This document shows positions 36,370-62,900 of a stretch of 64,000 nucleotides of DNA, piece by piece. The position numbers and the translations under genes were made by a program. The notes beneath the pieces are model-generated. The model had not been told where the DNA came from. It was given only the letters and a program-made list of their open reading frames with translations, and did not search any database. How positions within the stretch are numbered: the first letter of the stretch is position 1; every line of letters begins with the position of its first letter. Origin of the DNA: Eubacteriales bacterium (GTDB taxonomy: Bacteria > Bacillota > Clostridia > Oscillospirales > CAG-272); contig JAZQYD010000058.1 in NCBI GenBank assembly GCA_045633405.1, positions 11,086 to 75,085 of the forward strand. The letters are read 5' to 3'.

Positions 36370-36396
36370 ATTCGTAGTAACTGAAAGGTGAAGGAA

Positions 36397-37656: not shown

Positions 37657-37660
37657 ATAA

Positions 37661-37716: not shown

Positions 37717-37717
37717 A

Positions 37718-39799: not shown

Positions 39800-39904
39800 A
39801 ATAACCTCCTTTGGGTACTACTTTAATTATAAACTATTTCTCATCTTTAACAATGCAAAATACGGACATTTTACAGGTTTTGCTTCCTGATTTTACAATA
39901 CCTA

Positions 39905-39933
39905 TTGACTTTAATACAAGTATAGTACATAAT
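39905..39933 (+). promoter_or_regulatory. Sigma-A-type promoter of the AraC-family gene
   Basis: TTGACT (39905-10), 17 nt, CATAAT (39928-33). Confidence 0.65.
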
Positions 39934-39945
39934 ATAGGTGAGGTG

Positions 39946-40809: not shown

Positions 40810-40888
40810 AAAACATGGCTTGATTTTCTATTTACAAAATAGCTTTTTGACTGTACAATTAGAATGATAAAATATTTAGGAGATTACT

Positions 40889-43253: not shown

Positions 43254-43342
43254 GGGATTAACCACGAGATACAGGGAAAAGGTCCCTGCTATCCACTCCA
43301 GGAATACCCCTCCCCCGGACGGAGAAAGGTAAGGTGTTTATT

Positions 43343-45649: not shown

Positions 45650-46128
45650 GAATATACGTAAGTGCCTCTGATATGATCACGGCAAACGAAAACAATTTAG
45701 TGAACCTCACCGCCTCCGACGGTACGTGCTACGAGGCTCTCGAGCCAAGACGGCTTTTCCCCGTCAGCCGTTCATGCTCCTACATAACCCTCTTAGACTC
45801 CGAAGGCAACGAGGTAGCGATAATCAAAGAGCTGAGCGATCTGAATGCAGAATCTCTGAAGGTGATAACAAGAAGCCTCAACGATTATTATCTTATTCCC
45901 CGCATTACGAAAATATTCTCTGCAAGTGACAAGAACGGTACTACTCACTGGTGTGTTGAAACGGACAGAGGATATAAGGAATTTGACATCAGGGTCAGGA
46001 GCCAAGATATCAGGGTTCGCCCCGATGGCAGAATAAGAGTCCGTGATTCGGACGACAACAGATACATCATCGACGATTACAGAGCTCTCGACAAGCATAG
46101 CAGGGCTCAGCTGATAGGTGATATATAA
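45646..46128 (+). CDS. DUF1854-family protein (ABC-exporter partner)
   Basis: GTG start in a GTGA overlap with the exporter stop, after AAGGAGGAAAG. LEPRRLFPVS...ITLLDSEGNEVAIIKELSDLNAESLKVITRSLNDYYLIPRITKI...HWCVETDRGYKEFDI...RVRDSDDNRYIIDDYRALDKHSRAQL matches my recollection of the DUF1854 pattern. Confidence 0.65.
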   Translation: MRIYVSASDMITANENNLVNLTASDGTCYEALEPRRLFPVSRSCSYITLLDSEGNEVAIIKELSDLNAESLKVITRSLNDYYLIPRITKIFSASDKNGTTHWCVETDRGYKEFDIRVRSQDIRVRPDGRIRVRDSDDNRYIIDDYRALDKHSRAQLIGDI

Positions 46129-46135
46129 TTTTTCA

Positions 46136-46170
46136 GGGCAGACACGACCGTGTCTGCCCTTTTTGTTTTT
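46136..46170 (+). terminator. Rho-independent terminator (plus strand; the hairpin is shared with the convergent GH20-like gene)
   Basis: GGGCAGACAC-gacc-GTGTCTGCCC followed by TTTTTGTTTTTT. Confidence 0.85.
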
Positions 46171-48338
46171 TATCTTAAGAATCTGAATTTCTCGCTCATT
46201 GCGTAATCAAGCTGAGAGAGCTCAAGGCGAGGTCTTCTGCCTGTGAGAGTCTCACGCTCAAGGTATGCACGAAGGTCAACGAGATACTGTCTGAAGAGTG
46301 ACATATTACGAAGATATACGTAGGACTGAGCACGCATCTTAGCACACTCTGCGAACGCCATAAGTTTCTCCCTCTCGTTTATGAGTCTGTCGAGGGTCTC
46401 GATGACACCTATGGGACTGCCTCCGTTGTTATAGTCCAAAGCCGCATTAAGAAGCGAGAGATACTCGTCCGCTATGCGATTGTAATGACGGCAGGTGAGC
46501 AGCCAGGTATCGTTAAGCTTATCATATCTTCCCGAATTCTCGAAGAATGCTATCGCAAGGTCGGAATTCTTCTTGACAAGCTCAAGGAATGCGACCTCTA
46601 CCCTATCAGAGCGGATGAGCCTATCGAAGGATTCACCGGGGAAATTCTTAATGGTGAAGGTACGGTTACCGCACTCGTCAAGGAGCTCGTTGCCCGCCTC
46701 GTCCTTCTTAACTACTCTGTAAGAGAAGTTATAATATTCAAGCCATCTGTTGAATCTGTTCTGGAAGTGGTTATGAGCCTCATCGATCATTATATCACGC
46801 ATTGCTCTGAATGCAGTGAGAGCCTTGCCCGTGTTCTTGGGGTAATACTTGCTCGCATAGCGGCGGTCGAAGCCGTCTTGGTTATCGATCTCACCGACGT
46901 TCCAGGAAAGGTCTGCTATAACGTAGAAATTCTTATCAAAGGAATAGTCGAAGGTACCGTATGCATCAGTGCCCTCGAAGCCGTGCTCGATAGCAACCTT
47001 CATCATACCTCTTACGTTCTCGTGGGTATCCTGAGCGGCGGTCCAGTTCTGGTAGGAGGAATAAGGCTTGATACGGCTTCTGAGAATTTTTCTCACCTTA
47101 TCTCGCTTGCCGAAGAAGAGACCTGCCGTGGGATCCTCGTAGCACCACCAGTCGAGTACGGCTACGTCATCGACACCGGCATCCACAAATCTCTGCTTGT
47201 TACCGTCAGTAACGGCGTCAAGCTCGAGGAACATATCGTGGCAGAGGAAGACCGACTTCATTCCCCTCTTCTTCGAATATTTAATAACTTCGATAGCGAA
47301 GTCGAGGAAGATATCCGTACGTGACTTATCCTTACACTTGGGGCACTCGCACTTGAAGGCAGGCCCTACCTCGTCGAGACCGAAGTGTATCTCGTCGTTG
47401 CCGAAGGGTGCTATATACTCGTCTATCATGTAGTCGGTCCACTTGTAGATGAGCTCCATTGTCGCAGGGTTAGCCGTGCAATAGCCCATCTTCTTCGGTG
47501 TACCGTCGGGGTGCTTCGCAGAGATCTCGGGGATATATCTCGGAATGAGTCTGTTGTGACCGAGGGTGTTGATCTGAGGAATAATTACTATATTTCTCTT
47601 CTTCGCATATGCGATGACCTCGGGGAGGAACTTCTCCTTGAAGATAGTGGGAATAAGATCGCATCTGTTGATCCATCTTCCCTCTCTTACGGAATAATAC
47701 TTGATCCTCTTAGGCGACTTGATCTCGGGGTGACCGGGAACGGGCATATAGAGAAACTCAGCGGGATCGCTATCGTACTGCCAGCCCCAGCAATCGTAGA
47801 GGGTGAGGCAGAGTCTGTTGATCTTCATAGATGCAAGGTAGTCAACGATCTCGAGGTAGTCCTCCTTGGTGAGAAACTCCGTGCCGTAGCGGGACTCAAA
47901 GGTATGTCCTCTGAACTTGAAATCGGGGTAGTCGAGGATGAATACGTCGGGGATAAGCACGTCGTCCTCTGCGAGCTCGAGAGTCTCGGCGAAGGTAACG
48001 GCAGCATAGAAGGCTCCTGCGGGGCTCTTACCGACGAGAAGAGTCTCTCTCTTAGCAGTCCTTACGTAATACGCCTCATCGCTCTCTATTCCCTCGAAGA
48101 GGGCATCTGCGGGATCGACCTTGATATTTAATTTGTAGTCGCCCCTCACTCCGTCACCCGTGACGCAGGCGATGCCTGCGAGCTTTTTCTCGAGCACCTC
48201 ACGTGCCGAGCGTGTAAGGTCGCACTTCTCGGAAAGGCGGATAGCGACCTTGCCTCCAAAGGAGGCGATTTTTATTATATTTCCGTTTTCCTCTATCCTC
48301 TTAGGCAAAGGAATAAGATATTCGGATGGCTTACGCAT
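46170..48338 (-). CDS. GH20-like glycoside hydrolase (beta-N-acetylhexosaminidase family) with helical C-terminal extension, leaderless
   Basis: 722 aa. ILDYPDFKFRGHTFESRY (GH20 domain-boundary pattern), IIPQINTLGHN, EIHFGLDEV (D-E catalytic pair context). Separated from paralogue 1 by only 40 nt, with its own AAAGGAGAA RBS. Confidence 0.6.
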   Translation of the reverse strand: MRKPSEYLIPLPKRIEENGNIIKIASFGGKVAIRLSEKCDLTRSAREVLEKKLAGIACVTGDGVRGDYKLNIKVDPADALFEGIESDEAYYVRTAKRETLLVGKSPAGAFYAAVTFAETLELAEDDVLIPDVFILDYPDFKFRGHTFESRYGTEFLTKEDYLEIVDYLASMKINRLCLTLYDCWGWQYDSDPAEFLYMPVPGHPEIKSPKRIKYYSVREGRWINRCDLIPTIFKEKFLPEVIAYAKKRNIVIIPQINTLGHNRLIPRYIPEISAKHPDGTPKKMGYCTANPATMELIYKWTDYMIDEYIAPFGNDEIHFGLDEVGPAFKCECPKCKDKSRTDIFLDFAIEVIKYSKKRGMKSVFLCHDMFLELDAVTDGNKQRFVDAGVDDVAVLDWWCYEDPTAGLFFGKRDKVRKILRSRIKPYSSYQNWTAAQDTHENVRGMMKVAIEHGFEGTDAYGTFDYSFDKNFYVIADLSWNVGEIDNQDGFDRRYASKYYPKNTGKALTAFRAMRDIMIDEAHNHFQNRFNRWLEYYNFSYRVVKKDEAGNELLDECGNRTFTIKNFPGESFDRLIRSDRVEVAFLELVKKNSDLAIAFFENSGRYDKLNDTWLLTCRHYNRIADEYLSLLNAALDYNNGGSPIGVIETLDRLINEREKLMAFAECAKMRAQSYVYLRNMSLFRQYLVDLRAYLERETLTGRRPRLELSQLDYAMSEKFRFLR

Positions 48339-48378: not shown

Positions 48379-50214
48379 TTACTCGATTGTGACAACCGAG
48401 GTGTATTCCTCTGCCGTGGCGGTGAGGGTGATCCTATATAGGTTGTCGACTCCCCACGTGCTCTTCACGTTGATGTCCTCGAAGTCCTTGGTGTTCTCGA
48501 TCGCTGTGATCTCGAGGGCGAGATCCTTGTTGTAAGAGAGGGTACGTCCGTCCGCAACCAGAAGCTTACCCTCCGAGATGATCTCGGGCTTCGCATAGCT
48601 TGTGAAGTGGAAGGCGATTTCACCCTCCCTCTCGAGCTTTACGGTATCGGTGACGGTAATTCTGCCCTCTGTAAGCGAGCACTCCCTCACGAGGCTTAAA
48701 ATGCCCGCCTCGGCAGGATATGCACCTGCGATATTCATTCTGACGGTGCGTCCGTCCACGTCGCAGGTTTCGTCCGAGGATGTCCTCGCCTTTCCGTCCA
48801 CCTGATCTATACCGTTCACGGTAGGACAGCTGTGGTAGGATGCATTCGTATACCATCTCTGGTATCTTGTCTTACCGAAATATTCATTATTGTAGCTTCC
48901 GATGCCGGGGTCGACTATGACGGGGCTCGCATTCGAGAAGATGACGAGGCAACCGACGTCGTTGTGGTTGCCGGGCTCACCGTTAGTTCCGCCCTTAGTC
49001 GCAAGGAATAGTCCCTTCGAGGTATCGGTACACTCACGGAATACCGCAATTTTATGTCCGTCGAGCCAGGTCGAGAGCCTTCCTTCAACTCTTGAAGCCT
49101 CCTTCACGGTAGGGGTGAACGCATCCTTCGTCACTCTGTATACCATACCGAAGAAGTAGTAATACTTATTCTGCATAAGATATGAGGCGTACTCACCGAA
49201 GGTGGAGAGGGTGCGTGAGCCGAGCTTGTCGCCCATTCTCTTTATCATATCTCCGTAGAGGTGGAGGGTGTTGTTACCGTCCTCAAAGTTTACGGCACGT
49301 CTGCCGTCGATGGACATGGTGGCGATAAACTCGCACATATTCCTTATGATAGGCTCGTGGTAGACGTTGATCTTACCTCCCGAGATATCCTCGAGTATCT
49401 CAAGACAGTCGAAGAGACATCCTGCCGCACCGTCCCAATAGAAGGGGCCCTCGGCACAGCATCCGTCCTCGGGATACTTGGATACGAAGAAATCGAGAAG
49501 CTGCATAGCCCTTGAGAGCACCCTCTGACGGAGGTGCATCTCCTCAACACAGGTCGCCATAGCAACAAGAACGTTCATCGTAATGCTGGGAAGCCAATTG
49601 CAGGAGCTGTGCATCCACCAGAAGTCACCCTGCACGAAGGGGCGGATGACACGGAGATAGACGAGGTGATCAATTCGTCTGCAGATGAAGGGGGTGATCC
49701 CGTCAAGCTTATCCCCGAGAAAATATCTCACGTATCCGAGGAGTGCTCCGCAGATGCCTCCGTAGAGGTCGAGACCGGGGAGGTCTGCCTCGGCATAGGC
49801 CTCGGGCACCTCGGTCGCAGGGTCCATAAGGGAGTTTGCCTGATGAGCGGGGATAACCCAGCTGACCTCCTCCATTATAGCCCAGGCTACGTCTGCGATC
49901 TTCTCGACGAACCTGCCCTTATTCTCATACATCTCGGCAAGGGTCATATAGAAGAGCATATCTCTTCTTCTATGGTGTACCCTCTCGTAGTTCGAGCGGC
50001 TGCCGCTTATGAATTTATCCCTGAAGAGGGAGAGGGAGATGACGGTGAGGGGCTCCTCCAGGAACCCTTCTGCCTTCTCCATAATTACCTTAGCCTTCTC
50101 GGGATCGATCCTTTGTTCCTTGACGTCCGAGAAAAATTTAAATTCGGATCTCGGCAAAAAGTTGCCCGCACTGCCGATGCCGTTTTTTGAAAATACTCTG
50201 ATTCCGCTTTCCAT
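48379..50214 (-). CDS. Heparinase II/III-like family protein, paralogue 1 of 6 (subtype A, GNHNDVG), leaderless
   Basis: 611 aa. HHRRRDMLFYM, SWVIPAHQ, PEDGCCAEGPFYWDGAAG, FLATKGGTNGEPGNHNDVGCLVIF, VDPGIGSYNNEYF. Family assigned from the NHNDVG / toroid-plus-sandwich pattern by memory. Confidence 0.55.
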   Translation of the reverse strand: MESGIRVFSKNGIGSAGNFLPRSEFKFFSDVKEQRIDPEKAKVIMEKAEGFLEEPLTVISLSLFRDKFISGSRSNYERVHHRRRDMLFYMTLAEMYENKGRFVEKIADVAWAIMEEVSWVIPAHQANSLMDPATEVPEAYAEADLPGLDLYGGICGALLGYVRYFLGDKLDGITPFICRRIDHLVYLRVIRPFVQGDFWWMHSSCNWLPSITMNVLVAMATCVEEMHLRQRVLSRAMQLLDFFVSKYPEDGCCAEGPFYWDGAAGCLFDCLEILEDISGGKINVYHEPIIRNMCEFIATMSIDGRRAVNFEDGNNTLHLYGDMIKRMGDKLGSRTLSTFGEYASYLMQNKYYYFFGMVYRVTKDAFTPTVKEASRVEGRLSTWLDGHKIAVFRECTDTSKGLFLATKGGTNGEPGNHNDVGCLVIFSNASPVIVDPGIGSYNNEYFGKTRYQRWYTNASYHSCPTVNGIDQVDGKARTSSDETCDVDGRTVRMNIAGAYPAEAGILSLVRECSLTEGRITVTDTVKLEREGEIAFHFTSYAKPEIISEGKLLVADGRTLSYNKDLALEITAIENTKDFEDINVKSTWGVDNLYRITLTATAEEYTSVVTIE

Positions 50215-50225
50215 TTATACTCCAA

Positions 50226-52091
50226 TCAGTAAATAGCGATCTCACTCGTTGCCTTATCAGCTCTCGCTCTCAGGGTAATACGCCACAGACACTCTCTTCT
50301 CCACGTTCCCTTGAAGTTGAGATCATCGTAAGGAAGGTAGGTATTTTCAACCTTCTCGATCACAAGACCGAGGCTCTTGTCATAGGCGAATACTCTTCCC
50401 TCTGCAATTGCGAGCTTGCCGTCCTCTATGACCTTTGGCTCGTCGATAGTCAGGTAGTTGAACTGGATATCTCCGACCTCGCTGAGAGTGACCTCGTCCT
50501 TCACACGTGCGACGCCGCCGTCAAGGTGGCAGGTACGTCTCATAGACTCGATGATCTCAGTTGGGAATGCTCCCTTCAGCTCCATGGAGACGGTCATATT
50601 CGCTTCGTCAAACACCTCGTCCGAGGATGCGAACTGTCCGCCTGCCTTCTGCTCAATACCGTTAACTGTTGGGATGGAGTGATAGGACGACTTCATGAAC
50701 CATCTGTCGTATCTCGTCGGGCCGAAGAAGCCGTTATCGTACGAGCCGTGGCTGGGGTCGATTATGACGGGCTCACCGTTATAGTATACAACAAGACAGC
50801 CTACGTCGTTGTGGTTATGCATTTCATTATTGGTTCCGCCCTTGGTAGCGAGGAACATTCCCTTAGAGGTGTCCTCAGACTCGCGGAATATGGCAACCTT
50901 ACCGCCCTCGTACCATACGGTGCGAGCCGCCTTGGTAACGTCCGCCTCGGTGATCTCGGGTATATACGCATTCTTGAGAACACTGAAGCACATACCGAAG
51001 AAATAATATCTGTCTACGGGGTTGTCTGCGGCAACCATCATACCGAATCTCTCGAGCTCCTCCGACTTGCACTTCTTACCGTATCTGATAAGGAGCTTAC
51101 CGTCGTGGTTAAGTCTCGGATGTGCATCGGCGAAGTTGAGGTAGTATCTGCCGTTGATATTGAATTTTACTATATACTCTCCGATCTTTCTGACAAGGGG
51201 ATCTCCGTACACGTCGATCTTACCGCCGGAGAGATCCTCCAAGAGCTCAAGACAATCGAAGTAGTTTCCGCCTGCACCGCCCCAATAACCGGGACCCTCG
51301 TCGCAGAAGCCATCCTCGGGGTAGAATGCAGTGAAGTTATCGAGCAAGAGCATAGCCTTCTCAACCACCCTCTTACGCTTCTCCATATCGGAAACGCAGA
51401 TAGCGGTAGCGAAAAGAATGCTGGAGGTGATATTGGTGAGCCAGTTATTCACTGCATTTCCGCCAAGACCCATCCAGCCGTAGCTGCCCGTGATGAAGGG
51501 ACGCACGCCGCGAAGATAGACGAGGTGGTCTATTCTCTTACAGATGATGGGGCTGATCTCATCAAGCTTATCCTGATGAAGATACTTCGCAAGTGCGAGG
51601 GTCGCACAGCAGTTTCCTGCATAGAGGTCAAGACCGGGGATGATGTCCTCTCTGTATGCCTCGGGCACGTCCGTGCCGGGAGCTGTGGGAGAGGTGTGAG
51701 TGTGAGCGGGGATGACCCAGCCGGTCTCGTCCATTATTGCCCAAGCGAGGTCGGCTATTCTCTCTATAAATCTGCCCTTCTTCTCAAACTCCTCAGCGAG
51801 CGAGAGGGTGAAGAGCATCGTCCTTCTCTTATGGTGGAAGCTCTCAAAGCGAGAGCGGATCTTGGTTTTCTTCATCTCGCGGAATAGCGAGAGGGTCAGC
51901 ATGGGGATGGGCTCAGCGAGATACTCCTCGGCATTTTTTACCATCTGCTCGCCGAAGGCCTTGTCCATCTTCAATTCATCACCCAAGTCTCTGTACATCT
52001 TAAACTCGGATACAGGAAGGATGTTTCCCTTATCTGTAACGCTTCCCGAGAGATACCCTTTTCTACTAAAAACTCTTATATTGCTTCTCAT
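50226..52091 (-). CDS. Heparinase II/III-like family protein, paralogue 2 of 6 (subtype B, HNHNDVG), leaderless
   Basis: 621 aa. HHKRRTMLF, GWVIPAHTHTSPTAP, PEDGFCDEGPGYWGGAGG, FLATKGGTNNEMHNHNDVGCLVVY, IDPSHGSYDNGFFGPTRYDRWFMKSSYHS. Confidence 0.55.
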   Translation of the reverse strand: MRSNIRVFSRKGYLSGSVTDKGNILPVSEFKMYRDLGDELKMDKAFGEQMVKNAEEYLAEPIPMLTLSLFREMKKTKIRSRFESFHHKRRTMLFTLSLAEEFEKKGRFIERIADLAWAIMDETGWVIPAHTHTSPTAPGTDVPEAYREDIIPGLDLYAGNCCATLALAKYLHQDKLDEISPIICKRIDHLVYLRGVRPFITGSYGWMGLGGNAVNNWLTNITSSILFATAICVSDMEKRKRVVEKAMLLLDNFTAFYPEDGFCDEGPGYWGGAGGNYFDCLELLEDLSGGKIDVYGDPLVRKIGEYIVKFNINGRYYLNFADAHPRLNHDGKLLIRYGKKCKSEELERFGMMVAADNPVDRYYFFGMCFSVLKNAYIPEITEADVTKAARTVWYEGGKVAIFRESEDTSKGMFLATKGGTNNEMHNHNDVGCLVVYYNGEPVIIDPSHGSYDNGFFGPTRYDRWFMKSSYHSIPTVNGIEQKAGGQFASSDEVFDEANMTVSMELKGAFPTEIIESMRRTCHLDGGVARVKDEVTLSEVGDIQFNYLTIDEPKVIEDGKLAIAEGRVFAYDKSLGLVIEKVENTYLPYDDLNFKGTWRRECLWRITLRARADKATSEIAIY

Positions 52092-52117
52092 ATTTTCTCC
52101 TTTTCAAATGACACCGA

Positions 52118-53974
52118 TCAAAATACCGTTATCTCACTGACCGCAGACTCTGCGTGCTTTGTGAGCGTGATTCTCCAAAGACACTCTCTATCCCACATGC
52201 CGAAATTGAGGTCCTCATAGGGGAGCTTCTTGTTCTCAATTTTTTCAATTGTGAGATCGAGGCTTGTATCGTAGGTGAAGGTTCTGCCCTCCGCCAAGGA
52301 AAGCTTACCCTCCTCTATCATCTTGGGCTCGTCGACGGTTACGTAGTGGAAGGCGATGTCTCCCACGTGGTCGATCTTCACCTCGTCCTTAACACGGACA
52401 ACACCTCCGTCAAGCTGACAGGTACGTCTCATCGACTCGATGCCCGCACTCTCGGGAAATGCTCCCTTCAGCTCCATAGAGACGGTCATATTCTCACCGT
52501 CAAACACCTCGTCCGAGGATGCGAAGGCAAGTCCGTCCTTCTCTTCTACCCCGTCAACGGTGGGCACTGAATGATAGCCGGAATTGTAGAACCATTTCTC
52601 GTATCTGAAATTACCGTAATCGTACGAGCCGTGGCTGGGGTCGACAATAACGGGCTTGCCGCCGTAGTATACAACGAGGCATCCGACGTCGTTATGATTG
52701 TGCAATTCTCCGTTGGTGCCTCCCTTGGTCGCAAGGTACATACCCAAAGAGGTGTCATCGGACTCGCGGAATATAGCAACCTTTCCGCTATCGTACCAGA
52801 CTGTACGCTCGGCCTTGGTGGTCTCGGCATCGGTTATCTCGGGAATGTAAGAATTCTTAAGAGTCCTGAATGCCATACCGAAGAAGTAATATCTTCTTAC
52901 GGGGTTATCGCGTGCCACCATTTTACCGAATCTCGTAAGAGACTCCGAGCCGCACTTCTCTCCGTAGCGGATTATGACCTTACCGTCGTGCTCGACTCTC
53001 GGTCTTGCATCGGCAAAGCAGAGGTAATAATTTTTATCAATATTGAATTTGACGATATACTCACCCATCTTCCTTAAGAGCGGATGACCGTACACGTTTA
53101 TTCTTCCGCCCGTGATATCGTCGATAAGCTCGAGGCAGTCGAAGTAGTTTCCTGCAGCACCGCCCCAATAACCGGGGCCCTCGTCGCAGAAGCCATCCTC
53201 GGGATAGGAGGAGGTGAAGTTATCGAGTATTCTCATAGCCTTCTCGACTACCCTCTTACGGATAGCGGTATTTGACACCGTGACCGCGGTAGCGAAGAGG
53301 ATGCTCGACGTGACGTTGGTCGACCAGTTGTTGATATTATTTCCCTCAAAGCCCATCCACCTGAACGAGCAGGTTATATAGGGACGGATACCGCGAAGGT
53401 ATATAAGGTGATCGATCTTCTTACAGATCACGGGGCTGATAGCGTCAAGCTTATCCTTATGCAGATATTTTACAAGTGCGAGGGTCGCACAGCAGTTAGC
53501 TGAATATAATTCAAGTGCCGGGATGACATCCTCCCTTATCGTCTCGGGGACGTCTGTATTCGATGCCGTGGGAGAATGGTAGGTATGAGCGGGGATGACC
53601 CAGCTCGTCTCATCCATTATAGCCCAGGCGACGTCTGCCATCTTCTCAACGAATCTACCCTTATTCTCATACGCCTCTGCAAAGGCGAGGTCGAAGAGCA
53701 TTTTTCTTCTTCTGTGATGGGAGTTCTCGAAGTTCGAGCGGATTCCCGTCTTTTTCTTCTCCCTGTAAAGTGAAAGAGGGAGGAACGGTATGGGCTCGTC
53801 GAGTATCTTCTCGGCAAGCTCCACCATATAATCACCGAAATCGGGGTTTATGGTCCTCTCTCCCGTAAGATCACGGAAGAGCTTGAAATCGGAAAAGGGC
53901 AGAATCTTCCCTTCCTCGATAACGCTGCCCTTTAAATATCCCGACTCGTAAAAAACCTTTATATTGCTTCTCAT
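52118..53974 (-). CDS. Heparinase II/III-like family protein, paralogue 3 of 6 (subtype B), leaderless
   Basis: 618 aa. Same motif set as paralogue 2 (YLATKGGTNGELHNHNDVGCLVVY, VDPSHGSYDYGNFRYEKWF). Confidence 0.55.
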   Translation of the reverse strand: MRSNIKVFYESGYLKGSVIEEGKILPFSDFKLFRDLTGERTINPDFGDYMVELAEKILDEPIPFLPLSLYREKKKTGIRSNFENSHHRRRKMLFDLAFAEAYENKGRFVEKMADVAWAIMDETSWVIPAHTYHSPTASNTDVPETIREDVIPALELYSANCCATLALVKYLHKDKLDAISPVICKKIDHLIYLRGIRPYITCSFRWMGFEGNNINNWSTNVTSSILFATAVTVSNTAIRKRVVEKAMRILDNFTSSYPEDGFCDEGPGYWGGAAGNYFDCLELIDDITGGRINVYGHPLLRKMGEYIVKFNIDKNYYLCFADARPRVEHDGKVIIRYGEKCGSESLTRFGKMVARDNPVRRYYFFGMAFRTLKNSYIPEITDAETTKAERTVWYDSGKVAIFRESDDTSLGMYLATKGGTNGELHNHNDVGCLVVYYGGKPVIVDPSHGSYDYGNFRYEKWFYNSGYHSVPTVDGVEEKDGLAFASSDEVFDGENMTVSMELKGAFPESAGIESMRRTCQLDGGVVRVKDEVKIDHVGDIAFHYVTVDEPKMIEEGKLSLAEGRTFTYDTSLDLTIEKIENKKLPYEDLNFGMWDRECLWRITLTKHAESAVSEITVF

Positions 53975-53997
53975 TTTTCTGCTCCTTCGTAAAATAA

Positions 53998-54052
53998 GGC
54001 TGTCCCGAAAAGACGCTTTTATTTCACGAGGCTGTCTTTTCGGGACAGCCTC
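53998..54052 (-). terminator. Terminator / attenuator-like element between paralogues 4 and 3 (two mutually exclusive hairpins)
   Basis: Minus strand: hairpin A is GAGGCTGTC-ccgaaaa-GACAGCCTC (54052-54028). Hairpin B is GGCTGTCCCGAAAAGAC (54050-54034) pairing with GTCTTTTCGGGACAGCC (54014-53998), followed by TTATTTTA. B uses both arms of A. Confidence 0.55.
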
Positions 54053-54062
54053 GATTTTACTT

Positions 54063-55928
54063 TTAAGCTATGGTAATTTCGCTCGTAGCGGAGGTTCCGT
54101 GGCTTCTGAGGGTTATACGCCAGAGACAATCTCTGTCCCAAGAGCCTCTGAAGCTCAGGTCATCGTAGGGGAGGTAGGTATTCTCTACCTTCTCGATAAC
54201 GAGTGCTAGCGACGTATCGTAGGTGAAGGTTCTGCCATCGGCAATACCGAGCTTACCGTCCTCGATAACGGTGGGCTCATCGACTGTGACGAAGTTGAAC
54301 TGAATATCGCCCTCATGGTCGAGCTTTACCTCATCCTTAACGCGGATAACGCTCTCGTCAAGCTGACAGGTACGTCTCATAGACTCGATGCCTGCATCAG
54401 CGGGGAATGCACCCTTGAGCTCCATCGAGACCGTCATATTGTCGACGTCGCACCACTCGTCGGAGGATGCGTACTCTCCGCCCGCCAGCTGCTCCTTACC
54501 GTCAACGAGGGGTACGGAGTGATAGGAGGACTTCATAAACCATCTGTCGTATCTTGTCGGGCCGAAGAAGCCGTTATCATACGAGCCGTGGCTGGGGTCA
54601 ACGAAGACGGGCTTACCGTTAGAGTATACCACGAGGCATCCTACGTCGTTGTGGTTGTGCATCTCGTTGTTCGTTCCGCCCTTGGTAGCGAGGTACAGAC
54701 CCTTAGAGGTATCCGTAAACTCACGGAAGATAGCGATCTTATAAGCATCGTACCACACCGTGCGGTAGCCCTGAACGGCGGGAGCGTTTTTGCAGGGAGG
54801 AGTGTAGAGATCCTTAAGCACACGGTAGGACATACCGAAGAAGTAGTATCTGTTAGGATTATTGTTGGACGCTACCATCTTACCGAAGCTCTCAAGCTCG
54901 GGAAGCTCACACTTAGAGCCGTAGCGGATGATGAGCTTACCGTCCTGCTCGAGTCTAGGACGTGCATCGGCAAAGTTGAGGTAATACTTGCCGTCGATGT
55001 TGAATTTAGCAATGTACTCACCCATTCTCTTGATGAGAGGATGAGAGTAAACGCTGATCGCACCGCCTGAGATATCCTCGAGGGTCTCAAGGCAGTCAAG
55101 AAGAGAGCCGCCTGCTCCGCCCCAGTATCCGGGTCCCTCGTCACAGCAGCCGTCCTCGGGATAGTATGCGGTGAAGTTATCGAGAATGTGCATAGCGTAC
55201 TCGACAACTCTGCATCTCGTGCTCTGCTCCTTGGTGGTGAGAGCCATAGCGAGGAGGATGTTGGAGGTAATGTTGGTGAGCCAGTTATCAATGAAGCCGG
55301 GAATGTCACCCGACCAGCAGTACTTAGCGGTGATGAAGGGGCGAACGCCTCTCAGGTATATCTGACGGTCGATACGCTTGCCGATGAACTCGGAGATGGA
55401 GTCAAGCTCGTCACCGACAAGGTACTTGATAACTGCGAGGAGTGCACAGCAGTTAGCACTGTAAAGATCGAGACCGGGAACAACGTCCTCGGTAAAGTTC
55501 TCGGGAACGGTGGAGGTGGGAGCTGTGGGCGAGTGGTAGGTGTGTGCGGGGATGATCCAGGTGGTCTCCTCGAGGATGGCCCAAACTACGTCTGCGAGCT
55601 TGGTAACGAATCTGCCCTCTCTCTCAATGCTCTCGGCAATAGCGAGGTAGAACGCCATATTACGTCTGCTGTGGTGCTTCGCCTCGAATCTCGAGCGAAC
55701 ACCGGTAAGGTATTTATCTCTGTAAAGCGAAAGAGGGAGGAAGGGGATGGGCTCCTCAAGATACTTCTCCGCCTCGGCGATGATGACCTTAGCCATTTCC
55801 TCGTCAACCGTCTTCTCCTTCAGGTCATAGAAGAGCTTGAACTTATCATAGGTGAGGACGTTCTCTGATGCACGTCCGACGAAGCCCGACTCCTTAAATA
55901 CTCTTATTCCGCTTCTCTTTGTACTCAT
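54063..55928 (-). CDS. Heparinase II/III-like family protein, paralogue 4 of 6 (subtype B), leaderless
   Basis: 621 aa. YLATKGGTNNEMHNHNDVGCLVVY, VDPSHGSYDNGFFGPTRYDRWFMKSSYHS. 15 nt after paralogue 5, with an AAGGAG RBS. Confidence 0.55.
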   Translation of the reverse strand: MSTKRSGIRVFKESGFVGRASENVLTYDKFKLFYDLKEKTVDEEMAKVIIAEAEKYLEEPIPFLPLSLYRDKYLTGVRSRFEAKHHSRRNMAFYLAIAESIEREGRFVTKLADVVWAILEETTWIIPAHTYHSPTAPTSTVPENFTEDVVPGLDLYSANCCALLAVIKYLVGDELDSISEFIGKRIDRQIYLRGVRPFITAKYCWSGDIPGFIDNWLTNITSNILLAMALTTKEQSTRCRVVEYAMHILDNFTAYYPEDGCCDEGPGYWGGAGGSLLDCLETLEDISGGAISVYSHPLIKRMGEYIAKFNIDGKYYLNFADARPRLEQDGKLIIRYGSKCELPELESFGKMVASNNNPNRYYFFGMSYRVLKDLYTPPCKNAPAVQGYRTVWYDAYKIAIFREFTDTSKGLYLATKGGTNNEMHNHNDVGCLVVYSNGKPVFVDPSHGSYDNGFFGPTRYDRWFMKSSYHSVPLVDGKEQLAGGEYASSDEWCDVDNMTVSMELKGAFPADAGIESMRRTCQLDESVIRVKDEVKLDHEGDIQFNFVTVDEPTVIEDGKLGIADGRTFTYDTSLALVIEKVENTYLPYDDLSFRGSWDRDCLWRITLRSHGTSATSEITIA

Positions 55929-55943
55929 TTTTAAATCTCCTTA

Positions 55944-57782
55944 TTAACGAATGGTCACGGTGAAGGTGTTATCCTTGGCAGCGGCTGTGAGCTTGAGATC
56001 CCAGAGGCACTCTACACCCCACCAGTGCTGTATATTGAGGTCATCGTAAGGAAGGCACTTGTTCTCTACTCTGTCGTAGGATACCGTGAAGACCTCGGGG
56101 TCATATGAGAGAACTCTTCCCTCTCCGATCTCAACCTTGCCGTCCTCTCTGATTTGAGGCTCGTTGACGAGGTTGAGGTGGAAGATATACTCGCCCTCCT
56201 CCGAGAGCTTAAGTGCATCGCTGACAGTGATAAGTCCGTCCTCAAGGTGGCAGGTACGTACAAGACTCTCGATGCCCGCCTCGGGTTTATAAAGCTTACC
56301 GATCTCCATCGAGACGGTACGTGCATCTACGTCACACACCTCGTCAGAGGATGAGCCTCCCGTCTTCTGCTGATAGCCGTTGATCTCGGGACAGCTGTGA
56401 GCGTTGGAATTAGTAAACCAACGAAGATATCTGTAATCGCTCTCGAAATATTTGTTGTTATAGCTTCCTATACCGGGGTCGACTGCTATGGGCTTACCGT
56501 CCGAGAAGATGATAAGTGCACCGACGTCATTATGGTTGCCGGGCTCGCTGTTAGTACCGCCCTTGGTAGCAAGGAACAGACCCTTCGAGGTGTCGGTCGA
56601 CTCACGGAATACTGCGATCTTGTGTCCGTCCATCCATACCGACTTCTTCGCAACAACGGGATCGACCTTGTGCACGGTGGGAGTGAATACGTTTCTCACA
56701 ACGGTGTAAGGAGCACCGAAGAAGTAGTATATATTTGCACGCTCAAGAGACATCGTGTGTCCGAAGGAGAGAAGCTCATCGGAGCGAAGCATCTTACCCA
56801 TGATCTCGATGAGGTCTCCGTCGGGAGAAACCTTACCGTGGCAGTCGGCGAAGTTTACGAAATACTTATCATGAATATTAACCTTGCTGATAAACTCGCA
56901 AAGGTTACGCACCATAACGTCATCGTATACGTTTATCTTACCTGCGGAGAGGTCGTCAAGAAGGAGCATAGCGTTGAAGAATCCGCCGGCTCCCGCACCC
57001 CAATATCCGGGGCCCTCGTCACAGGTACCGTCCTCGGGCATACCCGCAGAGAAGTTATCGAGCATCCACATAGCCTTCTCAACCACTCTCTCACGGATCT
57101 CCATATCCGAGACGGTAGCCGCTGTCGCTACAAGGACGTTCATCGAAATGCCGGTAGGCCAGTTATGAGCGGAATAAGACCACCAATAGGTACCCACTAT
57201 GTAGGGACGCACGGTACGGAGGTAAACGAGGTGATCTATTCTCTCGCAGATATAGGGGCTGATAGCATCAAGCTTATCCTTGAGGTAATACTTCGTCACA
57301 GCGAGAACGGCACCGCAGTTAGCCGAGTAAAGGTCAAGGCCGGGCACGTCCTCCTCTCTGTATATCTCAGGCACGTCACTGTTAGGTCTCATATGAGAGT
57401 TAGCCTGGTGAGCGGGAATAACCCAGCTCGACTCCTCCATTATCGCCCAGAGGACGTCTGCAATCTTCTCAACGAAGCGTCCCTTGTCCTCATACATCTC
57501 GGCGATAAGCATATAGCAGAGCATGTCACGTCTGTGGTGATGGACGCTCTCGTAATTTGTTCTAGAGCCCGTGAGGAACTTGTCTCTGTAAAGCGAAAGA
57601 GGGATCGGAACGATCTCTTCCACAAGAAACTCCTCGGCACGCTTCATAATGACCTCGCACTTCTCGGGATCCATCTTAGTGAGGTCAAAATTCCTATGAT
57701 ATTTGAACTCCTCAATAGGCAAAAGAAGACCCTTTGCACTCTTGAAATTATTCCTTGCAAATACACGAATACCGCTCTTCAT
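55944..57782 (-). CDS. Heparinase II/III-like family protein, paralogue 5 of 6 (subtype A), leaderless
   Basis: 612 aa. FLATKGGTNSEPGNHNDVGALIIFSDGKPIAVDPGIGSYNNKYFESDYRYLRWFTNSNAHSCPEINGYQQ. Has its own promoter. Confidence 0.55.
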   Translation of the reverse strand: MKSGIRVFARNNFKSAKGLLLPIEEFKYHRNFDLTKMDPEKCEVIMKRAEEFLVEEIVPIPLSLYRDKFLTGSRTNYESVHHHRRDMLCYMLIAEMYEDKGRFVEKIADVLWAIMEESSWVIPAHQANSHMRPNSDVPEIYREEDVPGLDLYSANCGAVLAVTKYYLKDKLDAISPYICERIDHLVYLRTVRPYIVGTYWWSYSAHNWPTGISMNVLVATAATVSDMEIRERVVEKAMWMLDNFSAGMPEDGTCDEGPGYWGAGAGGFFNAMLLLDDLSAGKINVYDDVMVRNLCEFISKVNIHDKYFVNFADCHGKVSPDGDLIEIMGKMLRSDELLSFGHTMSLERANIYYFFGAPYTVVRNVFTPTVHKVDPVVAKKSVWMDGHKIAVFRESTDTSKGLFLATKGGTNSEPGNHNDVGALIIFSDGKPIAVDPGIGSYNNKYFESDYRYLRWFTNSNAHSCPEINGYQQKTGGSSSDEVCDVDARTVSMEIGKLYKPEAGIESLVRTCHLEDGLITVSDALKLSEEGEYIFHLNLVNEPQIREDGKVEIGEGRVLSYDPEVFTVSYDRVENKCLPYDDLNIQHWWGVECLWDLKLTAAAKDNTFTVTIR

Positions 57783-57819
57783 CAGCGATACCTCCTTAAA
57801 TATTTTACTTTACAAGGTT

Positions 57820-57848
57820 ATTATACCGAAATTCCTTTACAGCGTCAA
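57820..57848 (-). promoter_or_regulatory. Sigma-A-type promoter of paralogue 5
   Basis: Minus strand: TTGACG (57848-43), 17 nt, TATAAT (57825-20). Confidence 0.75.
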
Positions 57849-57909
57849 GAGAATTCGCCAATTTAGGAGTAAAACTTTTTTGGGCAACATTACCAAAGAT
57901 TTGGTTAAT

Positions 57910-57956
57910 ATATACAAAGAAGCACGACTACCGCAGATGTTTCTTGGTAGTCGTGC
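57910..57956 (-). terminator. Rho-independent terminator after paralogue 6
   Basis: Minus strand: GCACGACTACC-13 nt-GGTAGTCGTGC followed by TTCTTTGT. Confidence 0.7.
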
Positions 57957-57982
57957 ATAATGCGTTTTTATAGAATTTACTG

Positions 57983-59827
57983 TCAGGTAATAGAGATCGA
58001 GCAGGTGATTTTTTCGCCCCTCGAGGTAAGCTTAAGATCAAAGAGGCATTCTACCTCCCACCATCTCTCTATGTTCAGGTCATCGTAAGGAAGGTTGGTA
58101 TTCTCAACTCTCGAATAGGTAGCGGAAAATGCATCCGCATCGTAAGAAAGCACTCTTCCCTCTCCTATCTCTACTCTGCCGCCGTCAAGTATTTTAGGCT
58201 CGTTGACAAGGTTCAGGTGGAAGATATATTCACCCTCCGCCTTAAGGCTCAGCGAATCGCTGACGGTAATAAGACCGTCCTCTAGGTGACAGGTACGCAC
58301 AAGGCTCTCGATGCCTGCCGAGGGGGGATATGCGTCACCGATATTCATAGATACGGTACGGGAGTCTATATCGCACTCCTCGTCCTTTGACGCCATATTC
58401 ACTCCCGGTATCTGCTGATAGCCGTTGATCTCGGGACAGCTGTGAGCGTTGGAGTTAGTGAACCAACGAAGATATCTGTAATTGCTCTCGAAATATTTGT
58501 TGTTATAGCTTCCTATACCGGGGTCAACTGCGATGGGCTTACCGTCCGAGAATATGATGAGTGCACCGACGTCATTATGGTTGCCGGGCTCGGCATTGGT
58601 ACCGCCCTTCGTAGCAAGGAAGAGTCCCTTCGAGGTATCGGTGGACTCACGGAATACGGCAATCTGGCTACCGAACATCCATACGGACTTCTTGGCTACA
58701 ACGGGGGTCGCCTCCTTGACGGGAGCGGTATAAGCCGTTCTCACAGCACTGTAAGAGGATGCGAAGTAGAAGTATCTCGACCCGGATGCCTTCGCCATGG
58801 CACGGCCGAAGGAGATGAGCTCCTCGGAATCGAGCATCTTACCCATAAGCTCGACGACGTCGCCGTTAGGTCTCATTCTTCCATCGCAGTCGGCGAAGTT
58901 AAGGAAATAGTTATCGTGAATATTTACCTTACTGATGTACTCGCAGAGGCTACGTGCGTACTCGTCATTATAAACGTTGATCTTACCTCCCGAGAGGTCG
59001 TCAAGAAGGAGCATAGCCTCGAAGAGGCCTCCTGCACCCGCACCCCAATAACCGGGGCCCTCGTCACAGCTACCGTCGGCAGGCATGCCGGAGGTGAAAT
59101 TATCGAGCACCCCCAGGGCCTTCTCTACCACTCTCTCGCGAATCTCCATATCCGATACGGTTGCGGCAGTGGCGGTAAGAATGTTCATGGTAATACCCGT
59201 GGGCCAGTTGTGAGCGGCGTGCATCCACCAAAAATCACCTACTATGTAGGGACGGATACCGCGAAGGTAGACGAGGTGGTCGATACGCTCGCATATGTAG
59301 GGGCTGATAGCATCAAGCTTATCCTTAAGATAGTATTTTACAGTGGCGAGAAGTGCCGAGCAGTTAGCGGCGTAGAGATCGAGACCGGGAACACCGCTCT
59401 GTTCATAAACCTCGGGCACGTCACTGCCGGGCCTCATAAGAGAGTTACTCTGGTGTGCAGGAATTACCCAGCTGGACTCCTCCATAATAGCCCAGAGGAA
59501 ATCGGCTATTTTCTCTACAAATCTGCCCTTATCCTCATACAGCTCAGCGAGGAGCATATAAAGAAGAAGTGCACGTCTCTCATGATGGACAGCCTCGTAA
59601 CGGCTTCTGTTACCCGTCAGGTACTTATCTCTGAAGAGCGAGAGAGGAATCGTGGTAATCTCATAGTCAAGATTCTCCTCGGCACGTGCAAGAATGACCT
59701 TGGCATGCTCGGGAGCGATCTCTTTAATATCGAAATTTCTGTGGAAACGGAATTCCTCGGGTGAGAGGAGCAAGCCCTTCACGCTCTTGTAATTATTCCT
59801 TGCAAAAAGACGTATACCGCTTTTCAT
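57983..59827 (-). CDS. Heparinase II/III-like family protein, paralogue 6 of 6 (subtype A), leaderless
   Basis: Start trimmed to MKSGIRLFARNNYKS (cat at 59825-27, GGAGGA RBS). The 21 extra codons in the track ORF cover the promoter, and the track start TTG is the -35 box. 614 aa. About 75-80% identical to paralogue 5 in the blocks compared by eye. Confidence 0.55.
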   Translation of the reverse strand: MKSGIRLFARNNYKSVKGLLLSPEEFRFHRNFDIKEIAPEHAKVILARAEENLDYEITTIPLSLFRDKYLTGNRSRYEAVHHERRALLLYMLLAELYEDKGRFVEKIADFLWAIMEESSWVIPAHQSNSLMRPGSDVPEVYEQSGVPGLDLYAANCSALLATVKYYLKDKLDAISPYICERIDHLVYLRGIRPYIVGDFWWMHAAHNWPTGITMNILTATAATVSDMEIRERVVEKALGVLDNFTSGMPADGSCDEGPGYWGAGAGGLFEAMLLLDDLSGGKINVYNDEYARSLCEYISKVNIHDNYFLNFADCDGRMRPNGDVVELMGKMLDSEELISFGRAMAKASGSRYFYFASSYSAVRTAYTAPVKEATPVVAKKSVWMFGSQIAVFRESTDTSKGLFLATKGGTNAEPGNHNDVGALIIFSDGKPIAVDPGIGSYNNKYFESNYRYLRWFTNSNAHSCPEINGYQQIPGVNMASKDEECDIDSRTVSMNIGDAYPPSAGIESLVRTCHLEDGLITVSDSLSLKAEGEYIFHLNLVNEPKILDGGRVEIGEGRVLSYDADAFSATYSRVENTNLPYDDLNIERWWEVECLFDLKLTSRGEKITCSISIT

Positions 59828-59861
59828 TTTATATCCTCCGAATAATTTGTTATCTAAGGCT

Positions 59862-59890
59862 ATTATACCCGAATTATAAGACACCGTCAA
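59862..59890 (-). promoter_or_regulatory. Sigma-A-type promoter of paralogue 6
   Basis: Minus strand: TTGACG (59890-85), 17 nt, TATAAT (59867-62). The flanks resemble the paralogue-5 promoter (cTTGACGnTGT...AATTnCGGnTATAATAnCCTT). Confidence 0.75.
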
Positions 59891-59931
59891 GATAATATGA
59901 TAATTTAATTTGATTATTTTACTGACGTGAA

Positions 59932-59970
59932 TGGAAAAAAAGTGCGGCCGTCTTTAAGGGACAGCCGCAC
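59932..59970 (-). terminator. Rho-independent terminator after the 1020-aa secreted protein gene
   Basis: Minus strand: GTGCGGC-tGTC-ccttaaa-GAC-g-GCCGCAC followed by TTTTTTT. Confidence 0.8.
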
Positions 59971-59991
59971 GGAAATATTAAGATTTAAAGA

Positions 59992-62900
59992 TTAACGAAG
60001 CTCTGCATCTACGGGAGGAGTATGATCGAAGTAAGGAGGAAGAACTCCGCCGTTGTAGGTTACGAACGCCTCGTAGCAGTATGCGAAGAGAGAATCGAGA
60101 AGAAGCGTGAGAGCCTCATCCTTGTTCTCCATAGCGTTTACGTAGGACATAAGGCTGTATTCGCCGCTGATAGCAGTGCCATCCTCAGCAGTACCGGTGA
60201 TCGAGATAACGTCCATGTAGAATTCAAGAGCACCGAGGGAGATCTCGATGTAGGTGCACTCGCCAACCTTTCCGTCAACTACGGAATAGGAGGTGCCGAG
60301 AACGTTGATATCACCCGTGAAGCCCTCTTTTATATTAAGTCTGAGAGCGAGATCACTGGAGAGATAAAGCTGAGCACCTCTGAAGGCAACAGCGATATTT
60401 CCTCTGTCAACGTCATCACGGTCGATAACGTCCTTGCCGGGACGAACGTTAAGAAGGTAGTCCTCGGATGCAAGAAGCTCACGAGCCTTAATGCTGAGCA
60501 CGCTGGAGGTGTACTCATATCCTGCCTTTACGTAAGTAAGAGCAGCAGCACCGAGCTTACGTACAAGGGGATCGTCATCACTCAGAAGATCTCTGAAGTA
60601 ATCAACGAGGTCATAATCAATGTTCATCGCAAAGACGTTGCCCTCAGCATCCTTAAATCCGATCTTGACAGAGATAACGTCAAGTGCGTTCGAAACGGAG
60701 ATACCGTCAACCGAGCCAACGTAATACTCGACACCGTCAATGGTAGTCTTAGCAAGGTCAGCTACGTCAACTCTTCCGAGGTAGGACTCGAAGTAAGCTA
60801 CGTCCTCGGTGGTGGGAACGTAGAAGTTAGCGGTGAAGCCTACGGTAAGCTTAAGGTTAAACTTGAACGCAAGGTCGTTCTCAGCAACAGTGTAAGAGAA
60901 GATGGGATGGTCAACCGCAAGCACGTGCATGCCCTCGGGTAACACAACCTCACCGCTCGATACGGTAGGAATAGCATCAAGGTAACAGCCCTCGCCGATA
61001 GTGTAGGTACCCTCAAGAGAGGTCTTACCGTTGGAGCGGGCGGGAACCTCGAACACCTCACGTGTCTTAGCACCCGAATTCTCCATTGTGAAGGTCATCC
61101 TCGAGCCCTCGGTAATGTTGTCGGCAACCGTTCCGTAGAGTGCGAAGAGGCTGTCTGCACCGACGTACTCACAATCCTTGATATTGAGAGTCATCTCGTG
61201 AGCACCTGCTCCGGGAAGGTAGGTTGCAAGAGCACCTGCCGCATTTACGGTAGTCTCGGTGAAGTTAACAGTAGCTGCTCCACCCTCACCCGTGTAAAGA
61301 ATAGCGGGTACGTAATTGTCTGTTGTTCTGTGCTCAACGGTAGCACCGTTAAAGTTTACAGTACCCTTATTGATCTTAATAAGAGCCGCTGTATCATAGA
61401 GAACAACTGTATCCTTGCCTACGTTAAGAATACCTGTTCCATCTATAACAGCGAGGCTGGTACGGGAGGAGGATACGGTACCGTTAATAATAGTGAACTC
61501 AACTCCGTCGAGAATCTCAAGAGCTGCGGACTCGTGCGAGAAGACAAGATCCTTATAGAAGGTGTATCCGCCGAGGTCAAGAGTCAGGCTCTTGCCGATA
61601 ACGATCTTCTCATCTGTATCGTAGTGGATATCCTTGTAGAAACGGATATAGGAATTCTCGCCGAATTCATTAAAGGTATTCTTGGTTATTGTATCACCGA
61701 TGATACCGCCGATGATATTTTCATCAGACATATCGGACGAGGAATACTCAACGATAGCAACCTCACCCTTAGAGAATACTGCGTAGTAGGTGACCTCCTT
61801 ATCGGTAACGGTCACGGTGTGCTCCCAATCAGAGCCGTCCTCGTTCTTGGACCAGCCGTCATGGATATCAAGGTAAACCTTGCCGTCCTCGCTGTAATAG
61901 CCTGCAGCCTCAGCGGGATAACGGATCTTAAGACCGTCTGCATAGCCCTCAACGCGAGTCTCAACTCCGTTTATGTTCCAGGTAACGTTGCAGAGGTACT
62001 GGCAGAGCTGATGAGGATACTCGGGATCGCCCGAATTACCCCAGATGAGCTCAGGATTATCCGGATCCTGCTCACCGCTTGTAAGAAGCTGAACCTCGTT
62101 ACCGAACTTAACAAAGTTCTTGTTATCGCCGTAAACCTCAATGGAGTCATAGTAGTTGACCGAGAAGGTGGTAGCATTAACGGGAATGTTCTGCTCCTTA
62201 AATCTCGCACCCTTGGAAATGTTTACGCTGGCAACGCACTCAGGGTTATCTATAACAAGGAAGGTATCGTCCAAGAAGTTAAAGCCCGAACCGTTTGCAA
62301 AGCTGATGTTAAGAACGTCGTAGGCCGAAGACTTTGCGTATATAAACTTATGGGTGTGAGCGGTGCTGTTATCGATATAGTAGGAATCCTCGAAGATTAC
62401 GTTACGCTCATAGTCGGGCATAGTGCCGTCTTCTTCCTTAGGCTTAAGCTTATCAGCATCCTTAGCAGTGTATGCCGCAGAAAGGCTGAGAATAGCTATA
62501 CCGGAGCACTCGGGTGCAACCTCGAAGGTGGTATTCTTGAAGTGAATGATACGAACGCCTGCGTCGTATATAAAGTTACCGCTCTTCGACTTTTCAATAA
62601 TGTGAAGGTTCTCAAAATAGATTTCACTGTTAGGACGGGGCTGGATGAACTGGCTCGAGATGTGCTCGATAGTACCGTTCTTAATAGTGAGCGATGCTCT
62701 GTCAAGCCAGCTGGGAGCAGACGAGCCGTTAACGATTATCTTCGACGAGGCGGTCATCTTGTGGCCGTTTAAGTTAATGATAATGTTCTGACGTCTGTCA
62801 AGCTGAACCTGAGAGGAAACCAATACGTCACTGTAACAGAGAACGTAGCCTCTGCCGGTAAGCTTATCGGTGGTAAGAGCCGCAGTCTCATATTTAGCAA

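Follow-up and report, generated by a model that had tools for sequence, protein, structure and literature searches.

Six tandem minus-strand genes at positions 48379-59827 of a 64,000-nucleotide stretch of contig JAZQYD010000058.1 from a Eubacteriales bacterium (the window, meaning the whole stretch of DNA that was analyzed) are paralogues related to polysaccharide lyase family 33 (PL33). The genes span 611-621 codons each, are separated by gaps of 11-200 bp, and fall into two subtypes, A and B, a split that a preliminary description of this DNA had proposed and that an alignment of the six proteins bears out. The position that separates the subtypes is predicted to be the catalytic histidine of PL33 enzymes. 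Subtype B keeps this residue and, judging from its sequence, most likely cleaves a glucuronate-containing glycan by beta-elimination, with glucuronate at +1. Subtype A has glycine in its place; our favored reading, held at about even odds, is that it still works as an enzyme, its proton relay rewired and its substrate preference changed. Numbered by plus-strand coordinate from W1 (48379) to W6 (57983), the genes are as follows.

57983-59827, minus strand: W6, PL33-like, subtype A, 614 aa from the ATG at 59827; Gly415 codon GGC at 58583-58585
55944-57782, minus strand: W5, PL33-like, subtype A, 612 aa; Gly415 codon GGC at 56538-56540; catalytic Tyr260 at 57003-57005
54063-55928, minus strand: W4, PL33-like, subtype B, 621 aa; His424 codon CAC at 54657-54659
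52118-53974, minus strand: W3, PL33-like, subtype B, 618 aa; His425 codon CAC at 52700-52702
50226-52091, minus strand: W2, PL33-like, subtype B, 621 aa; His425 codon CAT at 50817-50819
48379-50214, minus strand: W1, PL33-like, subtype A, 611 aa; Gly415 codon GGC at 48970-48972

Subtype A (W1, W5, and W6) is marked by the blocks EPGNHNDVG, DPGIGSYNN, and WVIPAHQ[AS]NS, and subtype B (W2, W3, and W4) by E[ML]HNHNDVGCLVVY and DPSHGSYD. The preliminary description had given the first two blocks correctly and had misquoted the third for two subtype B members: in W2 it reads WVIPAHTHTSPTA (HTHTSPTA), with T, not H, three positions past the His, and in W4 it starts WIIPAH. The difference in the block after WVIPAH is mostly confined to the paralogues of the window.

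Family assignment and the variable catalytic position

The best matches of the paralogues in a PDB sequence search were the PL33 enzymes BcPL33HA (8r73) and BtPL33HA (8r75, 8r6z, and 8r70-8r72), with E values of 5.8e-71 to 3e-68 over residues ~32-607 (E 5.8e-71 for W3 against 8r73); the next-best matches were PL35 enzymes at E ~1e-7. Structures of BtPL33HA (BT4410) and BcPL33HA are available as PDB 8R6Z, 8R70-8R73, and 8R75, and the paralogues are 27-30% identical to characterized PL33 enzymes. AlphaFold2 models of W5 (subtype A) and W4 (subtype B) reached predicted local distance difference test scores of 96.1 and 95.6, respectively, and W1-W6 are predicted to fold into an (alpha/alpha)6 toroid N-terminal domain followed by a two-sheet antiparallel beta C-terminal domain (beta-sandwich). 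A Foldseek comparison, which covered the subtype A model (W5), placed PL33 structures in all of the top ten positions (template-modeling (TM) scores 0.81-0.84), with BcPL33HA and BtPL33HA best (E ~1e-42, TM 0.84); PL35, PL15, PL17, PL12, PL21, and human DS-epimerase 1 (DS-epi1; 6hzn, E 3e-15) followed. Profile searches gave a weak Pfam Hepar_II_III_C match (18.7-32.7 bits, some under the gathering threshold) and, for NCBIfam, no match to the paralogues.

Heparinase II, which the preliminary description had taken as its reference family, is a distant fold relative of these proteins: it gave no match in the PDB sequence search, and its Foldseek matches (2fut and 2fuq) had a TM score of 0.54 at 13% identity. 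Heparinase II, Alg17c, and PL15 were ruled out as closest relatives, PL33 being far closer in both searches, and the paralogues belong to none of those families. Within PL33, the marker position of the -1 subsite is Asn in all three B members (W2-W4) and, in A, Gly (W5 and W6) or Ser (W1), and it is mostly one of these three residues across the homologues. It is neither the Trp242 of subfamily PL33_1 nor the Val of PL33_2, which suggests that the paralogues form a group outside the two described subfamilies.

In BtPL33HA, N238 is the charge neutralizer, Y291 serves as base and acid, and H444, which lies ~3 Å from the catalytic Tyr, activates Y291; R103 and H154 bind the +1 glucuronic acid, W224, W239, L174, and W242 form a platform, and Y470 and F475 form a lid (PMC11848413). 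The H444A mutation lowers specific activity ~17,000-fold, and the Y291A/H444A double mutant is dead (PMC11848413). N238, Y291, and H444 have been reported as invariant across PL33, and the lid residues Tyr470 and Phe475 occurred in every PL33 sequence that was examined (PMC11848413, Loiodice et al. 2025). We rebuilt the Bt numbering from a HMMER alignment, which recovers R103, H154, L174, W224, N238, W239, W242, Y291, H444, Y470, and F475. In this alignment H444 is the first His of E-S-H-N-H-N-D-V-G and aligns with the position that varies between A and B.

The PL35 enzyme GAGase II provides a second point of reference. When the C-terminal part of W3 was aligned with GAGase II (8khv), its HnHnD...D residues matched SEQRES H379, H381, D383, and D399, which with an offset of +22 are H401, H403, D405, and D421 of the enzyme. 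His401 belongs to the Tyr246/His401/Asn192 triad of GAGase II, in which Ala mutants are inactive, and the Mn2+ ion is surrounded by His403, Asp405, Asp421, and His457 (PMC12088678). Their equivalents in the paralogues are two residues of HNHND (its second His and its Asp), the VDP Asp, and the YHS His, and all six proteins keep them, as putative counterparts of the conserved Zn2+ site that PL33 enzymes have around the beta5-beta6 loop. The alignments to BtPL33HA and GAGase II rule out the first His of HNHND as a metal ligand. The earlier suggestion that the His/Asp-rich segment supplies metal ligands therefore holds for the second His and the Asp, but not for the variable first His, which maps to the catalytic residue. 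Since the equivalents of the metal ligands are kept in both subtypes and the first His is catalytic, A and B are predicted to differ in catalysis and not in metal content. In heparinase II His406, and in exoHep His555, is likewise a catalytic residue (PMC7904915), and from the Tyr/His sets tabulated in PMC12088678 we infer that they are equivalent to this first His.

Inspection of the Asn238/Tyr291/His444 set found it intact in subtype B (W2-W4) and altered in subtype A (W1, W5, and W6), which has Gly at His444. Subtype A thus departs from the definition of PL33 at one feature and agrees with it in sequence, predicted fold, and lid, and it keeps the equivalents of the PL35 metal ligands. PL33 enzymes cleave GlcA-containing glycans (HA, CS, heparosan, and gellan) by beta-elimination. 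The assignment of subtype B as a probable lyase follows from its keeping of the complete set, namely Asn238, Tyr291, His444, Arg103, His154, the Tyr470/Phe475 lid, and the putative residues of the metal site.

Two clades and the selection acting on them

A search of 5.8 billion proteins yielded 1210 homologues, and the best 120 were analyzed. For the tree we used 119 homologues together with W3 and the Bt and Bc PL33 enzymes, on which the neighbor-joining tree was rooted. All 44 sequences with Gly at the variable position formed one clade without exception, and the other 76 all had His (best 120 of 1210). When all three motif blocks were deleted from the alignment, the Gly clade was still recovered in 110 of 117 bootstraps (94%). 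The H444 column is the sole perfect discriminator of the clades (Gly in 44/44 A, His in 68/68 B and in 8/8 of the outgroup). By comparison, R103, H154, N238, W239, Y291, Y470, D448, D464, and H490 are 100% conserved in A and in B, and H446 is His in 43/44 A. The lid is present in all six paralogues and throughout the clades, with Tyr470 in 44/44 A and 68/68 B and Phe475 in 43/44 A and 67/68 B.

Other differences track the split less strictly. The DPxxGSY difference, I in A as against H in B, holds family-wide in ~91% and 74% of members, respectively, the subtype B residue being a His gained three positions ahead of the lid Tyr; subtype B also shows Y528F. Members of subtype A have Pro before the Gly in 95% of cases, Y328F in 91%, and Tyr at T474, and the subtype A proteins of the window have a loop between W224 and N238 that is 4 residues shorter. 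In the wider family, represented by 148 sequences at 50% identity, His was scored in 145; the remaining three were unscored, one being a fragment and two having been missed by the motif pattern (P0259, which by eye reads as His, and P0178, which is without a reading). A scan of GTDB species-representative genomes for A-type genes returned at least 80 loci, all of them with His among the matches listed.

W5 and W6 are 73% identical to each other, as are W2 and W3 at 70%, and identity between A and B members is 47-51%. W1 falls in a different A sub-clade from W5/W6, and W4 in a different B sub-clade from W2/W3. The ratio of nonsynonymous to synonymous substitution rates (dN/dS) is 0.17 for W5/W6 (A) and 0.16 for W2/W3 (B), and both subtypes are under purifying selection. 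Together, the separate sub-clades, the A-to-B identity, and the low dN/dS identify W1-W6 as old, maintained paralogues.

Operon context and related arrays

In the direction of transcription the array reads A-A-B-B-B-A, the order given in the preliminary description, whose midpoint division corresponds to the 88-bp gap between W4 and W3. This gap holds a hairpin with a 12-bp stem (54027-54053). There is no T-run behind it on the minus strand, and so, instead of terminating transcription, the hairpin may attenuate it or mark a site of RNA processing. The features that flank the array or lie within its gaps are as follows.

46170-48338, minus strand: GH20-type beta-N-acetylhexosaminidase-like gene, 40 bp downstream of W1, no signal peptide; Pfam Glyco_hydro_20 and Glyco_hydro_20b
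57820-57848, minus strand: promoter-like TTGACG-17-TATAAT upstream of W5, within the 200 bp between W6 and W5; a hairpin comes before it
59862-59890, minus strand: promoter-like TTGACG-17-TATAAT upstream of W6, 11/12 consensus matches, conserved with the W5 site
59992-63054, minus strand: gene for a 1020-aa secreted protein, directly upstream of the array, with an N-terminal signal-like segment in its translation

The regions 57783-57982 and 59828-59991 have in common a promoter-like element, CTTGACGxTGT...GGTATAATAxCCTT, with a terminator-like hairpin before each. The likeness of these upstream elements indicates that the duplication that gave rise to W5 and W6 copied the regulatory region too. 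A strong terminator-like hairpin (59970-59942) separates the 1020-aa gene from W6, and W6 may be its own transcription unit. The mechanically called open reading frame of W6 begins with the TTG of 59890; an ATG lies at 59827, with GGAGG 8 nt upstream of it, and a start there agrees with how the other paralogues begin.

W1-W6 show no apparent hydrophobic signal segment at the N-terminus, and their sequences begin at about the start of mature BtPL33HA. The proteins are therefore probably cytoplasmic and would act on imported oligosaccharides. The 1020-aa protein, which had no Pfam and no PDB match, could be an extracellular component of the pathway; a partial gene at 63075-63950 (minus strand) is a paralogue of its C-terminal part.

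Positions 35448-43075 form a neighborhood for glycan utilization, with a SASA-type acetylesterase gene, a GFO/IDH/MocA oxidoreductase gene, two GH36/melibiase-like genes, and an AraC regulator gene. On the plus strand at 43334-46128, a fused ABC exporter-type gene (ABC_membrane and ABC_tran) with an unusual ~180-aa extension at the N-terminus precedes a DUF1854 gene that overlaps it, the pair being convergent with the GH20/lyase operon. Unrelated to the lyases, a 1592-aa protein with Listeria-Bacteroides repeat / InlB B-repeat domains and a C-terminal collagen triple-helix repeat is encoded at 19014-25765 (plus strand), followed by a 596-aa MORN-repeat protein.

Several related loci combine the two subtypes. 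An ENA metagenome contig (L084) carries a 46%-identical homologue of the 1020-aa protein followed by A-A-B-B-B-B-A and by an eighth Hepar_II_III_C gene, which is truncated by the locus end. Its genes are orthologous to those of the window position by position, at 62-72% identity (W6 to g1 and g2 at 66-68%, W4 to g3 at 72%, and W1 to g7 at 67%), and the order A-A-B-B-B(-B)-A is thus conserved in another organism. A second locus (L083, from an NCBI assembly) encodes a 1026-aa homologue of the 1020-aa protein (39% identity) and then a single A+B pair. As in the window, GH36 and SASA genes lie near this pair, which suggests one conserved pathway. A longer array, on the 59.6-kb scaffold_112 of ENA ERZ28633380 (L001/L002), consists of 12 paralogues, arranged A B A B A A B A A B B B, and has two GH20 genes at its end. 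An A-A-B segment of ~5.7 kb occurs in it two times, with the same motif strings and the same N-terminal sequences in both copies; this reflects either a segmental duplication of very recent date or an artefact of assembly.

The A:B ratio is accordingly 3:3 in the window, 1:1 in L083, 6:6 in L001/L002, and 3 A to 4 complete B among the first seven genes of L084, where the array is cut at the locus end. In the window, L083, and L084, A and B genes adjoin with gaps of 11-15 bp. Co-occurrence of the subtypes in other genomes, a point raised in the preliminary description, is thus seen in L084, L083, and L001/L002, but some A genes lack a neighboring B. In L085, P0048, which represents a second A lineage, stands by itself with no adjacent B gene. 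The basal A member P0060 (L086, 10001-11872) likewise has no adjacent B and is divergent to a gene for a GH88 unsaturated glucuronyl hydrolase; enzymes of GH88 consume the products of lyases. P0060 reads E-I-G-N-N-N-D-I-G and therefore has neither the first, catalytic His nor the metal-binding His that comes second; ceramidase-like and acyltransferase genes lie near it. The named relatives come from uncultured Clostridia or Oscillospiraceae metagenome-assembled genomes from the gut.

Proposed function of subtype A and comparison with known systems

Subtype A belongs to one old clade in which Gly took the place of His444 and Pro that of the preceding residue, with the other catalytic, substrate-binding, and putative metal-binding residues kept. 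We propose that it is still a working enzyme, in which elimination would proceed without the His, with protons handled by Tyr291 alone or by Tyr291 together with Tyr470. The two-tyrosine relay is modeled on the proposal for Tyr258/Tyr450 in PL17, in which the orthologue of Y470 is the base and that of Y291 the acid (PMC11848413). Subtype A would differ from B in its substrate or in the configuration of the uronate, and the two sets, with the downstream GH20 hexosaminidase, would dismantle one family of N-acetylhexosamine (HexNAc)/uronate oligosaccharides. We consider subtype A a candidate enzyme because its Tyr and Asn are invariant, selection on it is as strong as on B, it can stand alone (once by a GH88 gene), and PL17 offers a Tyr/Tyr precedent. 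A bolder form of this proposal is offered tentatively, as a possibility that we hold to be on the doubtful side: the Gly clade would be a His-less but active PL33-like branch with a Tyr-only or Tyr/Tyr relay, the cavity that the imidazole left would admit a different uronate epimer or a substituted uronate, and the A/B arrays of gut Clostridia would form a two-mechanism system that depolymerizes a mixed-uronate glycan inside the cell.

Several observations weigh against an active subtype A and the pathway built on it. Every relative that has been studied (PL33, PL35, PL15, PL21, and PL12) depends on the equivalent His for full activity, and by analogy a His-less enzyme may be nearly dead. None of the candidate compensating residues examined in subtype A (Lys68, Trp200, His387, Tyr445, and Cys464, W5 numbering) is invariant; the best of them, His387, is found in 86% of A and not in W6. 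We found no GH88 or GH105 gene in the window and no obvious sugar importer beside the array, and both the substrate and the cytoplasmic location of the lyases are ones that we infer.

The main rival, which we rate as rather unlikely, takes these points to their end. Subtype A would be a dead or very weak "pseudo-lyase" that keeps its binding cleft and assists B as a partner that binds or sequesters glycans or has a regulatory role, possibly as a heterodimer. Mutation of the residue that A has lost lowers activity 17,000-fold in BtPL33HA and leaves PL35 GAGases with no measurable activity, an invariant compensating residue was not found in A, and the A and B genes of the window, L083, and L084 are tightly adjacent. 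PL33_1 enzymes are, moreover, dimeric, but PL33_2 enzymes from Bacillota-type lineages are monomeric (PMC11848413). A binding partner is also difficult to reconcile with the keeping of the purely catalytic Tyr291 and Asn238 in 44/44 sequences at a dN/dS equal to that of B, with A:B ratios that vary between loci, and with A genes that have no B neighbor in L085 and in L086, where the A gene lies next to GH88. The preliminary description had left the choice between two mechanistic classes and catalytic plus non-catalytic partners. Two real lineages do lie side by side, and the loss of the first His is mechanistically weighty; an obligate partnership is weakened by the A genes without an adjacent B.

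We think it very unlikely that subtype A catalyzes another reaction on the same scaffold, such as hydrolysis or uronate C5 epimerization of the kind performed by DS-epi1. DS-epi1 does appear among the Foldseek matches, and it presumably keeps the equivalent His. Epimerization needs two proton-transfer groups, so the loss of one does not favor it, and PL33 lyases are much nearer relatives of subtype A than any epimerase is, even though the fold and catalytic apparatus are common to the mammalian glycosaminoglycan (GAG) epimerases (PMC11848413). That the A/B difference is trivial, either a surface polymorphism without a role or an artefact of blocks read by eye, has next to no probability and is already refuted. 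Nothing was found in its favor, and the block following WVIPAH is largely window-specific. The alignment places the variable residue in the active site beside the catalytic Tyr, its column alone separates the clades perfectly, and the Gly clade does not depend on the motif blocks.

The replacement of the His in subtype A matters beyond this array. The Tyr-His-Asn center is treated as universal in lyases with an (alpha/alpha)n-toroid and a beta-sandwich (PL12, 15, 17, 21, 33, 35, and 39) and in the related GAG epimerases, and a sizeable clade under purifying selection that has changed this His alone is a natural experiment on its role. The Gly clade should yield either a His-independent mechanism or a conserved, lyase-derived binding protein; if the branch is indeed active, the stated invariance of the Tyr-His dyad in the superfamily would be overturned. 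The multi-copy, apparently cytoplasmic arrays with GH20 point to an uncharacterized glycan-degradation pathway in animal-gut Clostridia. A literature search of incomplete coverage found no description of a His-less PL33 clade or of tandem PL33 arrays in Clostridia, and a literature search for the zinc ligands of Alg17c gave nothing usable.

Among known systems, PL33 is the closest. The paralogues resemble its members in full-length homology, in a TM score of 0.84, and in Arg103, His154, Leu174, Trp224, Asn238, Trp239, Tyr291, Tyr470, Phe475, and the putative metal-site residues, to which subtype B adds His444. They differ from PL33 in the Gly at His444 of subtype A, in a -1 marker that is neither Trp242 nor Val in either subtype, in the additional His that most B members have three positions ahead of the lid Tyr (DPSHGSY), in the lack of an apparent signal peptide in the window proteins, and in the tandem arrangement of their genes, from 2 copies to 12 or more. 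With the PL35 GAGases (GAGase II, 8KHV, and GAGase VII, 8KHW; PMC12088678) they share the fold and the H-x-H-x-D...D...H arrangement, but PL35 is a separate family of remote sequence similarity (E ~1e-7, and 15% identity in the structural alignment). Heparinase II (PL21), Alg17c (PL17), and PL15 have the same superfold, a Tyr/His/Asn-type center, and a structural metal in the beta domain. In contrast to the paralogues, to which they are related at Foldseek TM scores of 0.54-0.68 and 12-16% identity, they use extra or other bases (His202 in heparinase II and Tyr450 in Alg17c). We take His202 to lie beside the neutralizer of heparinase II, a position that would presumably correspond to the Trp of the N-W pair in the proteins described here.

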